A stretch of 64,000 nt of DNA from NCBI RefSeq assembly GCF_058153355.1, contig NZ_CM177019.1, one strand, 5' to 3'. Below the pieces are notes generated by a model. The model did not search any database. It saw only the letters and a list, made by a program, of their open reading frames with translations, and had not been told where the DNA came from. A program made the translations under genes and the position numbers. Positions 21,114-41,245 of this stretch are shown piece by piece (the first letter of the stretch is position 1; each line of letters begins with the position of its first letter).

Positions 21114-21200
21114 AACATTCAAGCTGATGACCACCACGCTTTTTATTGACCATTTTGCACGCAAACTGGAAAACCTGGCGTCGTCATCTATTCTTAAAGG

Positions 21201-21304
21201 GCAAGGCAACTAAGCCCTGCATTAATGCCAACTTTTAGCGCACGGCTCTCTCCCAAGAGCCATTTCCCTGGACCGAATACAGGAATCGTATTCGGTCTTT
21301 TTTT
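21201..21304 (+). ncRNA. sdsR: SdsR (RyeB) small RNA
   Basis: gcaaggcaactaagccctgcattaatgccaacttttagcgcacggctctctcccaagagccatttccctggaccgaatacaggaatcgtattcggtcttttttt matches remembered enterobacterial SdsR, including the terminal hairpin and U-run. Location next to yebY is as in K-12. Confidence 0.8.
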
Positions 21305-21338
21305 AATTGCATTTGAAATCAATTGGTTGCAAATGTCT

Positions 21339-22865: not shown

Positions 22866-23054
22866 TCACGAGGACTGAAGTTTCTCGCAATTAAAATTTA
22901 TCAGTTTTACTTTCTGCTCTCTGGAAACGCCTGCTTCTTTTTCCCCTGAGAGCATTTTTTCGCATTCTGATTTCGTTAGTTTTGTCTTTGAGTATCTTGT
23001 CCAGCTGGTAGGAGATCCACCTTCCTTTTCAATAGTGGCTGTAATTTTATACAT
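22866..23054 (-). CDS. hypothetical small protein
   Basis: 62 aa starting at MYKITATIEKEGG with a ggagg SD 5 nt upstream; low GC. Confidence 0.55.
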   Translation of the reverse strand: MYKITATIEKEGGSPTSWTRYSKTKLTKSECEKMLSGEKEAGVSREQKVKLINFNCEKLQSS

Positions 23055-28634: not shown

Positions 28635-29189
28635 TTATTTTAAGGAAAGCAACTGCTCTACGGTCATGTTTTTAATTGCGCCCCGGTTTACAAGAGTCCA
28701 GCCCTGTTTTTCCAGATAAAACCGGAAAGTCTCCAGGGTACAGACCAGTGCGCCATCAGGAACAGTTTCGGTGAATCTGATATTGCCGCGTTCGTCGAAG
28801 TGAACTACGAGAGTACGGCCATCTCCCGGAATCATCTTGTCAGCAGGTGGGGTGTTATTCTGGCGCAGTTCGGCCTCCATGCGGTCGAACTCAGCAATGT
28901 AGGCTTCTTTGAATGCAGCGGCTTTTTTGCCAGTGAATCCCATCACCAGGAAAACGAAGCCGTTTTTGGTGATCTGGTACATTGGGCGTTTTTCGCCTTT
29001 GGCGTCAGTGTAGGTGACGTCCTCAAAATTGAGGGCGTTAAATTCAGGTGAGCATTCAGTATTTGCGATGGCACGTAACACATTGTCGTGTCGTTTGTGG
29101 AAGAACTCTGCAACCGCAACAGACGTAGTGACAGCGCGACCGTTTTCTACGGTTACACTAGGGTGAGAAAGGGTAAGGGTAGTAGCCAT
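28635..29189 (-). CDS. Rha-family phage regulatory protein / antirepressor
   Basis: 184 aa from MATTLTLSHPSV (ggagg SD at 29198..29202). Rha-like core RAVTTSVAVAEFFHKRHDNVLRAI...YTDAKGEKRPMYQITKNGFVFLVMGFTG. Confidence 0.7.
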   Translation of the reverse strand: MATTLTLSHPSVTVENGRAVTTSVAVAEFFHKRHDNVLRAIANTECSPEFNALNFEDVTYTDAKGEKRPMYQITKNGFVFLVMGFTGKKAAAFKEAYIAEFDRMEAELRQNNTPPADKMIPGDGRTLVVHFDERGNIRFTETVPDGALVCTLETFRFYLEKQGWTLVNRGAIKNMTVEQLLSLK

Positions 29190-29245
29190 GATGGCAGCCT
29201 CCGCGATGAATTTGATTAACTCACCACCGGAGGTAGCAATCTCAT

Positions 29246-29325
29246 GGGGGGTGAGACGTACAGGGTTGCTACAACCGGTCATCACGGAACCCGGCCAGTC
29301 TTGCGACTGCCCCGCACGCCCCACC
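29246..29325 (-). ncRNA. c4-like antisense RNA, copy B
   Basis: On the minus strand, a 16-bp closing stem whose 4 G-U pairs are valid only on this strand. Inside it are a cagtc-GCAA-gactg hairpin, a ccgg-stem hairpin with loop gttccgtgatga, and a single-stranded tgtagcaa. The architecture is shared with copy A. Confidence 0.6.
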
Positions 29326-29355
29326 ATAATTTGAATGTGGCTGTGCATTACGCAT

Positions 29356-29432
29356 AAAAAAACCGCCTGAGCGCGGTTATGCGCCGTGAATGACTTCGGG
29401 GTAGCAATCCCAGCACCCGTTTTATGAGGTGC
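29356..29432 (-). ncRNA. short leader RNA carrying c4-target-like sites (module B)
   Basis: Lies downstream of the promoter at 29439..29467. Has the hairpin gcacct-cataaaac-gggtgc, sites ttgctac and tcattcacgg, and the terminator aaccgc-gctcag-gcggtt plus a U-run. Confidence 0.45.
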
Positions 29433-29438
29433 AGATGC

Positions 29439-29467
29439 ACTATAATTCCACCCGTTCTGGTTTTCAA
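29439..29467 (-). promoter_or_regulatory. sigma70-type promoter of antirepressor module B
   Basis: TTGAAA - 17 nt - TATAGT on the minus strand. Confidence 0.5.
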
Positions 29468-29650
29468 TAGCTACATTCAACATTTTCTCTTACCTTTCAT
29501 CACCGAAGTGAACTTTGTCGATGCGGTGCCTGGTGCCTCCAGGTGACGTTAACCAGTTAACAATTAACGCCGGAATAAGGGATTTTCCTTACTGTTTTAA
29601 CTGTTCCGCGTGCGCATAGCCGCATTCACCGCATCACAAAATTCACTTTA

Positions 29651-37384: not shown

Positions 37385-37414
37385 TTGACGACAACGTTAA
37401 TCCGGGGCTATATT
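37385..37414 (+). promoter_or_regulatory. sigma70-type promoter of antirepressor module A
   Basis: TTGACG - 17/18 nt - cTATATT. Confidence 0.5.
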
Positions 37415-37419
37415 CCTCA

Positions 37420-37497
37420 CGCGCCAGCAAAATCTGGCGTCGGGATTAGCACCCCGGATGTTTACGGAGCGATATGAGACGCGCCCGCGTCTTTTTT
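37420..37497 (+). ncRNA. short leader RNA carrying c4-target-like sites (module A)
   Basis: Hairpin cgccag-caaaat-ctggcg, sites ttagcac (37446..37452) and tacgga (37463..37468), terminator agacgcg-cc-cgcgtct plus a U-run. Collinear with the module B leader. Confidence 0.45.
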
Positions 37498-37530
37498 CAT
37501 ATCGTTTGCATAGTCACATTCGCGATTTAT

Positions 37531-37606
37531 GGCGGGCTGTGTGGGGGAGCCGAAAGGCTCGCCGGTTTCCGTACCCGGTAGTGCTAACCCCGCACAGTTC
37601 GCCACC
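37531..37606 (+). ncRNA. c4-like antisense RNA, copy A
   Basis: 76 nt. A 16-bp closing stem pairs 37531..37546 with 37588..37603. Inside are a gagcc-GAAA-ggctc hairpin, a ccgg-stem hairpin with loop tttccgtac, and a single-stranded agtgctaa. Confidence 0.6.
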
Positions 37607-37628
37607 CGATGATTGGAACATGAATGTA

Positions 37629-37657
37629 TTGACAGTTTCATGTTAGCAGATTACATT
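37629..37657 (+). promoter_or_regulatory. second promoter inside module A
   Basis: TTGACA - 17 nt - TACATT, followed about 60 nt later by a weak hairpin plus a T9 run (37694..37724). Confidence 0.45.
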
Positions 37658-37867
37658 CCTCGACGGTGCTCAAAACACCTTTCAGTAGCGGTTACCGCGC
37701 CCGACAGACATGCGGTTTTTTTTTGTGTCCAGAATTCTTGGTTTATGACTGGGCGTGCGGCTAATACAATACCAGCAATGGGAATACGCCCGCCGACTAC
37801 TGACGGTTTTGAGCGCCCGGTCACCCTCTCAAAAGGGGTAAATCAAAATATTCAGTAGGACATATTC

Positions 37868-38413
37868 ATGAACAGCGTATCTGTTGAAAACCTCCCATCA
37901 CTTACACATCAACATCTTCCTGTTATAACAACAGAACTTCTGGCTGAGCTGTACGGAACAGAGCGCCAGCGTTTGACAAACAATTTCAATAGAAACAAAG
38001 AGCGGTTTATAGAGGGAAAACACTTTTTCCTGATCGAAGGCGATGAATTACGGGAACTGAAGAACAGAAACTCTTTAAGAGTTTCTGTGAAAATCGCCCG
38101 CAATGTTCGCTCACTCATCCTCTGGACAGAACGAGGTGCAGCCCGTCACGCCAAAATGCTCGAAACCGATCAGGCGTGGGAAGTATTCGAAAAACTGGAA
38201 GACAGCTACTTCAACCAGTACGAGAAAGAGCGGGCTACGGGGAAAATGAACATCGATATTCACCTGGCGATCCGTGATGATAAAACTGCCTTCATCCGAA
38301 GTTATGCGCCTGGTCAGCTGGTGACGGTTGAAGAAGCCCTGATGTTGCTTAAATCGCGCGGATGGCTGGTAATGCCGCGAGATGAACTTGCCGGAAAATT
38401 AATGGAGCTTTAA
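37868..38413 (+). CDS. ORF6N/KilA-N-type antirepressor-like protein
   Basis: 181 aa. N-terminal pattern LPVITTELLAELYGTERQRLTNNFNRNKERFIEGKHFFLIEGDELRELK typical of ORF6N domains. Confidence 0.65.
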   Translation: MNSVSVENLPSLTHQHLPVITTELLAELYGTERQRLTNNFNRNKERFIEGKHFFLIEGDELRELKNRNSLRVSVKIARNVRSLILWTERGAARHAKMLETDQAWEVFEKLEDSYFNQYEKERATGKMNIDIHLAIRDDKTAFIRSYAPGQLVTVEEALMLLKSRGWLVMPRDELAGKLMEL

Positions 38414-38468: not shown

Positions 38469-38698
38469 AGAACATTACCACCGAGGATAAAATGATTTGC
38501 GGTGAAAGGGAAGTCAAGTAGAATTGCTGCGGGTGCTTGAGGCTATCTGTCTCAGGCATGAACACCAAAAGGCAGATAGAGAAGCCCCAGTTAACATTAC
38601 GCGTCCTGCAAGACGCTTAACATTAATCTGAGGCCCAATCTATGTCTCACAAATGTAGGTTAGCCTCTTACGTGCCGGAAGGCAAGGAGAAGCAGGCT

Positions 38699-38854
38699 AT
38701 GAAGCAGCAAAAGGCGATGTTAGTCGCCCTGATCGTCATCTGTTTAACCGTCATAGTGACGGCACTGGTAACGAGGAAAGACCTCTGTGAGGTACGAATC
38801 CGAACCGGCCAGACGGAGGTCGCTGTCTTCGTAGACTACGAATCCAGGAAGTAA
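38699..38854 (+). CDS. hok: Hok/Gef-family type I toxin (HokD/RelF-like)
   Basis: 51 aa, MKQQKAMLVALIVICLTVIVTALVTRKDLCEVRIRTGQTEVAVFVDYESRK. Nearly identical over its first 44 residues (two substitutions) to remembered HokD; the last 7 residues diverge. aaggaga SD at 38684..38690. Confidence 0.85.
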   Translation: MKQQKAMLVALIVICLTVIVTALVTRKDLCEVRIRTGQTEVAVFVDYESRK

Positions 38855-40934: not shown

Positions 40935-41011
40935 GGCCCTTTAGCTCAGTTGGTCAGAGCGAGCGACTCATAATCGCCAGGTCGCTGGTTCAAGTCCAGC
41001 AAGGGCCACCA
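40935..41011 (+). tRNA. tRNA, anticodon CAU (Ile2/ileX-like; Met not excluded)
   Basis: Cloverleaf ggcccttt agctcagttggtcagagc ... ctCATaa ... ggttcaagtcc ... gggccacca; close to remembered ileX. Confidence 0.85.
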
Positions 41012-41012
41012 A

Positions 41013-41089
41013 CCACCACTAGCTCATCCGGATAGAGCATCAACCTTCTAAGTTGACGGTGCGAGGTTCGAGTCCTCGGTGGTGGGCCA
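41013..41089 (+). tRNA. tRNA-Arg (UCU)
   Basis: Acceptor ccaccac/gtggtgg, anticodon loop ctTCTaa, T-arm cgaggttcgagtcctcg, encoded CCA. Confidence 0.8.
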
Positions 41090-41091
41090 GC

Positions 41092-41167
<76 letters not shown>

Positions 41168-41170
41168 TAT

Positions 41171-41245
<75 letters not shown>

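Follow-up and report, generated by a model that had tools for sequence, protein, structure and literature searches.

A recombinant prophage module in which an sRNA-Xcc1-type RNA probably forms a second c4-like control of an antirepressor-type gene

In the immI region of phages P1 and P7, an antisense RNA called c4 reportedly controls icd-ant, as described by Citron and Schuster in 1990. The P1 c4 RNA, a three-way junction of ~77 nucleotides (nt), comes from the transcript of its own target and contains two recognition elements, a' in the junction and b' in the loop of hairpin 2, with the specificities of P1 and P7 set by co-variation. Both elements have complements on either side of the RNA, and the downstream set is placed at a ribosome-binding site preceding the antirepressor gene. 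It is released from a precursor by RNase P and acts by translational repression followed by Rho-dependent polarity, and the Ant protein inactivates the prophage repressor. Summaries of the P1 and P7 system have been published (PMC7313666, PMC12197685). Here we analyze a stretch of 64,000 nt (the window; assembly GCF_058153355.1, contig NZ_CM177019.1) that carries a lambdoid prophage of the Escherichia coli type, and within it module A, a set of RNA elements upstream of a gene for an ORF6N-domain protein. We propose that module A is probably a recombinant of two tandem cassettes built on the c4 principle, in which a small RNA (sRNA) of the sRNA-Xcc1 type controls the ORF6N gene, and that module B of the same prophage is a third such cassette. 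Below, a1 and b1 denote the sites complementary to a' and b' in a leader, and a2 and b2 those downstream of the antisense RNA.

The Gifsy-1 prophage of Salmonella carries the arrangement isrK-orf45(STnc1160)-anrP-isrJ, with antQ upstream (Hershko-Shalev et al. 2016, PMC4825925). An intrinsic terminator in its leader yields the short IsrK RNA, and read-through transcripts carry the C4 homologue STnc1160 together with the gene for AnrP, an antirepressor-like protein of the ORF6N type (PMC4825925). In phage P4, the CI RNA is a processed immunity RNA whose pairing partners, in a system of elements seqA, seqB and seqC, flank its own gene on both sides within one transcript (PMC4825925). The sRNA-Xcc1 of Xanthomonas campestris has been described in other terms, as an integron- or transposon-borne, trans-acting sRNA under HrpG and HrpX with predicted host targets (PMC2996969; Chen et al. 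2011 as cited there). In Xanthomonas, Northern blots and end mapping put its length at ~88 nt (PMC2996969), and homologues in Xylella have been detected by RNA-seq, with bacterial and plant targets predicted in a 2025 study (PMC12189769). A paper on phage APSE noted an sRNA-Xcc1 copy upstream of an ORF6N gene and proposed no mechanism (PMC7313666), and a 2025 review of phage sRNAs names c4 and IsrK and not sRNA-Xcc1 (PMC12197685). In the open-access literature we found no link between sRNA-Xcc1 and c4-type or antirepressor control, a search that did not take in the founding RNA Biology paper of 2011, so that an earlier description is possible. The c4-like role of sRNA-Xcc1-type RNAs is the new part of this work, the C4 and isrK part being known.

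Between the C4 RNA of its first cassette (C4-A) and the ORF6N gene, module A had originally been predicted to hold an extra promoter and a T9-terminated element as parts of a degenerate module. These elements are instead the promoter (P2) and leader (leader 2) of an Xcc1-type cassette whose a2 and b2 sites lie over the ORF6N ribosome-binding site. Judged by its sequence, this cassette 2 (P2, leader 2, Xcc1-type RNA, a2/b2 and ORF6N gene) is complete and laid out like a c4 cassette (Table 1). In a scan with Rfam models at their gathering thresholds (45 bits for RF01695, C4; 53 bits for RF02221, sRNA-Xcc1), the RNA of cassette 2 scored 75.4 bits over the full length of RF02221 (model positions 1-87). 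It has an outer stem, a long conserved hairpin 1 (CUAAUACAAUACC...), a hairpin 2 with a variable loop, a single-stranded junction and a CACCC tail, and its complements to a1 and b1 extend over 8-9 nt and 6-7 nt, respectively. The a1/b1 and a2/b2 pairs are the only instances in the 64-kb window of an a site followed by a b site for this RNA, and the AGGA Shine-Dalgarno overlapped by b2 (37857-60) stands eight bases before the ATG at 37868.

The predicted position of a1 in a hairpin loop of leader 2 parallels that of a1 in isrK-type leaders, and in relatives both leader sites change in step with the RNA. P2 keeps its -35 and -10 hexamers, with differing spacers, among the window, the related loci L023, L028, L040 and L079, and the Shiga-toxin (Stx) phage Nil2. 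The protein encoded by the ORF6N gene is 52-54% identical to proteins of isrK-C4-gene-isrJ loci, which have the gene order of Gifsy-1 anrP. Neither the C4 nor the isrK model gave a hit on 37610-37866, even at E <= 10. We rejected on this result the possibility that the Xcc1-type RNA is a divergent C4 and classed it as working like C4 without being a member of RF01695; leader 2 is likewise an analogue of isrK and not a member. The window copy has a sigma-70-like promoter of its own and belongs to the nin region of a lambdoid prophage, and the integron or transposon location of the founding member was not found here; the Hrp regulators are not relevant to Escherichia.

An open frame of 81 codons (37613-37858, plus strand; TTG at 37613, ATG at 37640) spans P2, leader 2 and the Xcc1-type RNA, stops at a TAG inside b2, 10 nt before the ORF6N start, and is reminiscent of orf45 or icd. 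Such an upstream open reading frame (ORF) is not conserved: among 85 distinct related modules, frames over the RNA numbered 0.84 per module vs 0.57 in shuffles, and 26 modules had none.

These 85 modules were obtained by scanning viral contigs for the conserved hairpin-1 core; since relatives were collected through either the hairpin-1 motif or homology to ORF6N, the comparative sets represent the family's conserved core. We asked, with fixed windows, how often a hairpin-2 k-mer had its reverse complement in both the 125 nt upstream and the 53 nt downstream. A shared complement of at least 7 nt on both sides was present in 28 of 51 distinct cognate pairs, compared with 13 of 2550 non-cognate pairs. 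A version of the test restricted to the loop, for which the automatic hairpin-2 finder mis-assigned several loops, gave 29/49 cognate and 42/2346 non-cognate pairs. The b' loop is hypervariable, with 34 distinct cores among the 51 distinct relatives, and most of the 37 distinct relatives with a shared core have a b2 that directly adjoins or overlaps the Shine-Dalgarno (...agGAG, ...agGA, ...gaGG). The three elements b', b1 and b2 change together, from CUACUG/cagtag in the window to CUACUUG/caagtag in Nil2, CUUUCGA/tcgaaag in L023, CCUAUG/catagg in L040 and CUCACUGA/tcagtga in L079, the last two of which differ also in a', a1 and a2.

The unit of P2, leader, RNA and gene stands alone in L040 and L079 and in the Stx phages Nil2 and 2851, where it precedes antB and where the preceding gene, antA, has an isrK-C4 cassette of its own. 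According to the Nil2 entry in GenBank (AJ413274; our locus L003), ant was split into antA and antB, being 'disrupted by a putative bacterial retrotransposon'; what was taken for the insert (2467-2710) is the P2-leader-sRNA-Xcc1 cassette. The RF02221 gathering score was exceeded in 17/17 diverse loci tested, with relatives of the window RNA scoring between 54.7 and 80.9 bits. Across 50 homologues, the Xcc1-type structure was 88% paired, an underestimate owing to one subfamily that is out of register in the alignment (the outer helix is underestimated at 77% paired). Fourteen pairs were altered on both sides, 0/500 shuffles reached the observed values, and slid controls were 32-55% paired. RNAalifold, applied to the MAFFT alignment of the 50 RNAs, returned only 9 pairs, the 5' strand being out of register in one subfamily, and pairs were counted on the Rfam-derived structure.

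The genes behind phage-borne Xcc1-type RNAs encode ORF6N, Bro-N, KilA-N, P22_AR_N or Rha N-terminal domains, often with P22_AR_C or ORF6C, and this set is the usual antirepressor-type repertoire. In a bacterial survey with one genome per species, the hairpin-1 motif was present in many proteobacteria, and the logic of one upstream site and one site at the Shine-Dalgarno holds in Pasteurellaceae, Desulfovibrio/Mailhella, Legionellales, Chromobacterium, Arsenophonus, Photorhabdus and Succinivibrio. Thirty copies in Xanthomonadales (L204-L323; Xanthomonas, Rhodanobacter, Dyella, Lysobacter, Luteimonas and others) have a co-varying complement of 7-8 nt to the hairpin-2 loop ~94 nt upstream. The closing strand of the Xanthomonadales copies contains CCUCC, which could pair with the downstream GGAGG Shine-Dalgarno. 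In one viral contig (L087, 2202-2349, minus strand), three CRISPR-DR4 repeat hits lie ~1 kb from the Xcc1-type RNA and may represent a phage-borne mini CRISPR array.

We suggest that transcription from a cassette promoter of this kind would yield a short leader that carries a1 and b1 and ends in a terminator, and that read-through would give a three-way-junction RNA of ~80 nt that is cut out of the transcript. The b' loop and the a' junction of this RNA could then pair with b2 and a2 just downstream, where b2 covers the Shine-Dalgarno of the antirepressor-type gene, and this pairing would block ribosome entry and repress translation. Cassette 2 would most likely keep the AnrP-like gene translationally silent in the lysogen, while short leader transcripts could titrate the antisense RNA through a1 and b1, the ratio of leader to antisense RNA setting the switch. 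The family matches, the structural covariation, the positions of the complementary sites and their co-variation among relatives are direct observations. Excision of the RNA, translational repression, titration by the leader and antirepressor action of the proteins are inferred by analogy, for which P1/P7 c4 is the model of excision, repression and lack of cross-reaction between different a'/b' elements, and Gifsy-1 IsrK the model of counteraction by a leader. Hints of processing are present in both RNA types, which share a conserved UUAUG 5' flank and a CACC(C) 3' tail. As the recognition sequences of C4-A (GUGCUAA/UCCGUA), C4-B (GUAGCAA/CCGUGA) and the Xcc1-type RNA (UUUUGAGC/CUACUG) are mutually dissimilar, we predict that they provide three orthogonal controls.

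Several observations weigh against this proposal. That the 84-nt RNA exists, where it ends and how it is processed are predictions from sequence, and repression by a C4-like RNA is modelled on P1 and P7. In Gifsy-1, the leader effect that has been shown is an activation through an upstream ORF, IsrK promoting translation of orf45 to which that of anrP is coupled, and the role of STnc1160 was left open (PMC4825925). Leader 2 on its own folds no better than shuffled sequences (z = +0.72), and its terminator is weak, with a stem of 5 bp and a 13-nt loop before U9; compensatory variation in the terminator arms is limited, with a CCCGAYAG loop motif in only 38/85 modules and few arm variants, and lends it weak support. 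Fourteen of the 51 distinct relatives have no shared core of at least 6 nt, partly owing to the fixed extraction windows. As a' is much less variable than b', it provides a weaker test of co-variation, and the statistical weight falls mostly on b'. Finally, the Xanthomonadales copies have no clear b2, no exact complement being present near the downstream start codon, and for this reason the c4-like mechanism may not hold for the whole RF02221 family.

The original prediction saw in module A a single c4-like cassette, with control of the ORF6N gene diverged or broken and the intervening stretch reduced to an accessory promoter and terminator. C4-A indeed lacks a b2, and the canonical a2 place holds no cognate site. 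But that stretch contains a full RF02221 RNA, the loop and junction of which match sites both in the 'terminated element' and over the ribosome-binding site and co-vary with them in dozens of relatives, and the unit is free-standing in Nil2, 2851, L040 and L079; we consider a single cassette very improbable. An equally improbable account is that the Xcc1-type RNA is a trans-acting sRNA of the Hfq type directed against messages of the host, or of a eukaryotic host, and stands before the ORF6N gene incidentally. Although the family has been so described (PMC2996969, PMC12189769; Chen et al. 2011 as cited there), the published case consists of predicted and not of tested targets. In the relatives gathered here, most of the variable loops are best complemented in their own flanks, with b2 usually on the Shine-Dalgarno of the next gene, and even the Xanthomonadales copies have the co-varying upstream site.

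A purely cis-acting function deserves more weight, although we regard it as unlikely. Cassette 2 would then be a structured 5' leader in which b':b2 and a':a2 pairing hides the Shine-Dalgarno and b1/a1 offer the alternative, ON pairing, with neither a trans-acting sRNA nor any immunity specificity between phages. The four target sites share one transcript and fall within 200 nt, intramolecular pairing is kinetically favoured, and the IsrK model of Gifsy-1 turns on alternative structures of the long transcript (PMC4825925). Members of RF02221 nevertheless accumulate as discrete RNAs, of ~88 nt in Xanthomonas (PMC2996969) and as seen by RNA-seq in Xylella (PMC12189769), and the conserved AUG-stem...CACC(C) ends resemble those of processed C4 RNA. 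The hypervariability of b' (34 types) is expected under selection for specificity in trans, though co-evolution in cis would also permit drift, and sequence analysis does not separate the two modes of action.

The status of C4-A is a separate matter. Cassette 1 (P1, an isrK-type leader and C4-A) is intact as an RNA unit. Canonical isrK-C4 cassettes have a2 directly after the C4 tail (...CACC..GATTxxxxx) and b2 at the ribosome-binding site. The a1 of the C4-A cassette is GATTAGCAC, which canonical C4-A cassettes hold at the a2 position, and the window has there the relic GATTGGAAC, the sequence of both a1 and a2 in L028. The target search found no b2 for C4-A in the window, the best match being 4 nt, and no C4-A target over the ORF6N ribosome-binding site, as originally predicted. 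In the viral contigs L359 and L381, a virtually identical isrK-C4-A unit is followed by a2 GATTAGCAC and by b2 TACGGAG on the Shine-Dalgarno of an ORF6N gene. Because a2 is foreign and b2 missing in the window, and these intact twins keep both, the sequences indicate that the arrangement is a product of recombination, in which a C4-A unit was joined to an L028-like composite whose sequence leads straight from a2 into P2, and that C4-A is an orphan without cognate a2/b2 in cis. The earlier suspicion that regulation within module A had diverged or broken is borne out for C4-A and not for the ORF6N gene, since Xcc1-type sites cover its ribosome-binding site.

Composites in which an isrK-C4 unit is directly followed by an Xcc1-type cassette recur (L001/L026, L023-L027, L028), although they make up only 6 of the 85 distinct Xcc1-type modules. 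As in the window, the leftover a2 of L024 mismatches the resident a', which speaks against selection for pairing in cis. A 7-nt complement to the a' of C4-A, GTTAGCA (37642-48), lies inside the P2 spacer and can be extended to 7+4 bp with a bulge (37642-54; duplex -10.7 kcal/mol), where roughly 0.01-0.02 occurrences of one 7-mer in ~90 nt are estimated by chance. It has no independent comparative support, and we regard it as probably fortuitous; L028 differs at this site and mismatches its own a' there. A search of the window for trans targets of C4-A gave one notable hit, on the minus strand at 54337-54328, where GGTTAGCACT matches the a' region as an exact complement over 10 nt and is antisense to late-region ORFs; it was rejected, ~0.4 such matches being expected by chance in the window.

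C4-A could be either a relic or an RNA that acts only in trans on phages with a matching cassette. One version of the latter, that it is a maintained immunity RNA silencing the antirepressor of incoming or co-resident L381-type phages, or else acting on 37642-54 in P2, we hold to be possible but rather doubtful. The isrK-C4-A unit retains its promoter, its terminator, fully paired stems and matched a1/b1, exact a2/b2 sites exist in cassettes of other phages, orphan C4 units precede Xcc1 cassettes in six distinct composite modules, and the 7+4 bp complement is available. Against these points stand the mismatched a2 of L024 and the window group, the lack of independent support for the match in P2, and the consideration that intactness may merely reflect recent recombination.

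The parallel between modules A and B rests on firm ground. The motifs listed in the original prediction are all where it had placed them, in module A gtgctaa, tccgta, ttagcac, tacgga, ttagca (37643-48), TTGACA/TACATT and T9 (37716-24), and in module B the pairs gtagcaa/ttgctac and ccgtga/tcacgg; a consensus scan recovered both promoters of A, that of B and both isrK-type terminators. At gathering threshold, Rfam models matched isrK, c4-a1b1 and C4 in module A and isrK and C4 in module B, which together with the gene context bears out that A and B are paralogous c4-type cassettes in one lambdoid prophage. C4-A and C4-B both exceed the RF01695 gathering score, are predicted to fold as three-way junctions with z-scores well below shuffles (Table 1), and have complements of 7 nt for a'/a1 and 6 nt for b'/b1 in each cassette. 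Leader 1 has two hairpins, with a1 in a loop and an intrinsic terminator, and matches both the isrK (RF01394) and the c4-a1b1 (RF03163) model, whereas the c4-a1b1 score of the module B leader is below the family cutoff.

The compensatory stem changes proposed between A and B amount to five C4 pairs that differ on both sides and stay paired, including two in hairpin 1. In 25 distinct homologues taken from the window, Stx phages and viral contigs, the C4 structure (a 17-bp outer stem, hairpin 1 and hairpin 2) was paired in 99.6% of cells, and 12 pairs were altered on both sides. None of 500 shuffles reached the observed value on four of five measures (15/500 did for further pair types), and sliding the partners reduced pairing to 36-47%. 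The recognition pairs a'/a1 and b'/b1 co-vary between A and B as claimed, and among C4 cassettes we counted 22 (b', a') combinations, each with a matching 7-nt a1 and, except in the composite L024, a 7-nt match of the a2 type. The original observation on A and B is real and exceeds chance by a wide margin. Such C4/isrK paralogues, co-varying targets included, are well known and modelled in Rfam, and the window adds only new members. The claim of two c4-like systems of different specificity stands insofar as A and B do differ; it overlooked a third, Xcc1-type specificity at 37747-37830, and the prophage has three c4-like antisense-RNA specificities, not two. Across the C4 cassettes of L004-L083, ~6 types of a' and ~15 types of b' assort independently to give the 22 combinations, b' UUUCCGUAC for example occurring with a' ACGCCAA, GUCUCAA and GUGCUAA. 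This independent assortment suggests recombination between the two C4 recognition elements and a combinatorial specificity code.

By its sequence, module B appears to be a canonical C4 cassette controlling a gene of the Rha/Ant family. The C4-B loop CCGUGAUGA pairs with b2 UCAUCGCGG over 9 bp including one G-U (-19.3 kcal/mol), the strongest duplex in a matrix of short probes and targets. This matrix discriminated poorly, GC-rich stem flanks pairing promiscuously, and was used solely for the C4-B b2 and C4-A 37642-54 sites. An open frame of 282 amino acids (aa) on the minus strand (28635-29483, from ATG 29483) takes in all of module B in phase with the Rha gene, and in PHROG phrog_995, a profile of length 307, the alignment of the 184-aa Rha protein covers positions 101-306. 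On these two grounds, members of phrog_995 may carry an N-terminal extension of ~100 aa that is a translated RNA cassette, that is, a mis-called start.

Table 1. Positions in the window of the elements of modules A and B
Feature	Position	Strand	Basis or remark
Promoter P1 of the isrK/C4-A cassette, TTGACG-18-TATATT	37385..37414	+	consensus scan, 10/12 matches; position kept in homologous cassettes
isrK-type leader 1	37421..37499	+	Rfam isrK 74.4 bits (37421-97), c4-a1b1 49.8 bits (37408-60); fold; terminator scan
a1 TTAGCAC of leader 1, in hairpin loop	37446-52	+	
b1 TACGGA of leader 1	37463-68	+	
Intrinsic terminator of leader 1, hairpin and T run	37476-93 (hairpin)	+	terminator scan
C4-A antisense RNA	37525..37609	+	Rfam C4 79.5 bits; fold z = -5.5; covariation; target search
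b' UCCGUA of C4-A, hairpin-2 loop	37568-73	+	
a' GUGCUAA of C4-A, junction	37581-87	+	
Relic a2 GATTGGAAC, canonical a2 position	37611..37619	+	alignments; matches a' GUUCCAA of L028-type cassettes, not C4-A
Promoter P2, TTGACA (37629-34)-17-TACATT (37652-57)	37629..37657	+	consensus scan
Leader 2 (isrK analogue)	37664..37724	+	start inferred from P2
a1 GCTCAAAA of leader 2, loop of GGUG/CACC hairpin	37668-75	+	predicted fold
b1 (T)CAGTAG of leader 2, core CAGTAG 37683-88	37682-88	+	
Weak hairpin, then U9 (nine T) ending leader 2	37716-24 (U9)	+	
Predicted second c4-like antisense RNA, sRNA-Xcc1 type, 84 nt	37747..37830	+	Rfam RF02221
b' CUACUG(A) of Xcc1-type RNA, hairpin-2 loop; CUACUG 37797-802	37797-803	+	
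a' UUUUGAGC of Xcc1-type RNA, junction	37807-14	+	
a2 CTCAAAA of Xcc1-type RNA	37828-34	+	
b2 (T)CAGTAG of Xcc1-type RNA, core 37853-58	37852-58	+	overlaps Shine-Dalgarno AGGA
ORF6N-domain gene, 181 aa	37868..38413	+	Pfam ORF6N 1.2e-21; homologue of Gifsy-1 AnrP-type antirepressor-like proteins
Promoter of module B, TTGAAA-17-TATAGT	29439..29467	-	consensus scan
isrK-type leader of module B	29356..29432	-	Rfam isrK 60.2 bits; fold
a1 TTGCTAC of module B leader	29407-01	-	
b1 TCACGG of module B leader	29389-84	-	
Terminator of module B leader	29378-61	-	terminator scan
C4-B antisense RNA	29244..29331	-	Rfam C4 72.8 bits; fold z = -3.95
b' CCGUGA of C4-B	29287-82	-	
a' GUAGCAA of C4-B	29272-66	-	
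C4-B target region	29198..29239	-	
a2 TTGCTAC of C4-B	29239-33	-	
b2 UCAUCGCGG of C4-B	29209-01	-	overlaps Shine-Dalgarno GGAGG (29202-198) of Rha-family gene
Rha/Ant-family gene under module B, 184 aa	28635..29189	-	Pfam Phage_pRha 8.2e-32; PHROG Rha-like and anti-repressor families

In its left flank the window holds E. coli copD-yebY-yobA, followed by an integrase (97.8-99.3% identity). As the genes between modules B and A are a cI-like repressor (minus strand), an O-like initiator, a DnaB-like helicase and a Ren-like gene, module B lies in the leftward early operon and module A in the nin region of the same lambdoid prophage. The gene upstream of module A is a 95-aa ORF on the opposite strand. 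The exact module A sequence was absent from the complete E. coli genomes of the collection searched, where the best match (95.8% identity over 77% of the query) was to O157:H7 strains with the same composite. In these O157:H7 relatives (L001 4354-4609; L026 2368-2623), the ORF6N gene is followed after ~0.5 kb by STnc100 and the anti-sRNA AgvB. In their place the window carries a hok/sok-type toxin-antitoxin locus (38531-38854, plus strand; Rfam sok 107.3 bits; 70-aa ORF 38642-38854), directly 3' of the ORF6N gene, and the same neighbour is found in many related loci (L004, L007, L014, L045, L050 and others). SraC/RyeA and SdsR/RyeB mark the junction of the chromosomal copD-yebY-yobA flank with the prophage integrase, and the RalA antitoxin sRNA (203.9 bits) lies ~1.6 kb further in; the intervals of these RNAs are 21163-21308 and 22870-23048. 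Four tRNA genes stand in a row at 40935-41242 (plus strand), downstream of Q-region genes, and the same set is present in the related loci L028 and L049; tRNA rows at this place are as in lambdoid phages of the Stx type.

Whether a prophage wakes, or its neighbours in a polylysogen do, is decided by antirepressors. Two C4 cassettes of different specificity are ordinary for lambdoid prophages, and the same P2-leader-RNA-antB unit is carried by the Shiga-toxin phages Nil2, 2851 and P13374. Beyond this locus, we lean slightly towards the broader view that the sRNA-Xcc1 family consists of c4/CI-like immunity RNAs, forming a second, widespread lineage of these in phages and other mobile elements, and not of host-directed virulence sRNAs. 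Its loop would be programmed against the Shine-Dalgarno of the adjacent antirepressor-type gene and against a leader decoy, and prophages would stack and recombine C4- and Xcc1-type cassettes for combinatorial, orthogonal control. If this is true, an opaque and often annotated RNA family gains a concrete, testable mechanism and a target, and the host- and plant-target searches published for its members in Xanthomonas and Xylella would have to be read again. Dozens of natural loop and target variants would also offer ready orthogonal RNA-target pairs for studying how immunity specificity diversifies and is reshuffled by recombination.

Among the known systems, P1/P7 c4 is matched most closely in design. 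C4-A and C4-B match its Rfam model, and the Xcc1-type cassette has the same layout point for point; a2 and a b2 at the ribosome-binding site are present for C4-B and the Xcc1-type RNA and missing for C4-A. The Xcc1-type RNA differs from c4 in its long conserved hairpin 1 (CUAAUACAAYACC...) and in giving no match to the C4 model. In the window b2 overlaps the antirepressor-type gene's own Shine-Dalgarno, whereas in P1 it lies on that of a separate upstream icd-like ORF, and Xcc1-type modules have no consistent upstream ORF. With Gifsy-1 the window shares an AnrP homologue and an isrK-C4 unit, although here a whole second cassette parts that unit from the gene. No orf45 equivalent was identified in the window, and the Rfam scan of the window did not find isrJ, hok/sok following the ORF6N gene instead. 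P4 CI differs, on a comparison drawn from the literature alone, in acting by premature transcription termination of replication genes and through one recognition element. The closest relative of the RNA itself is sRNA-Xcc1, with which the window RNA shares the outer stem, conserved hairpin 1, variable hairpin 2 and CACCC-like tail, and from which the phage-borne members differ in lying in c4-like cassettes, before antirepressor-type genes and between flanks complementary to themselves.

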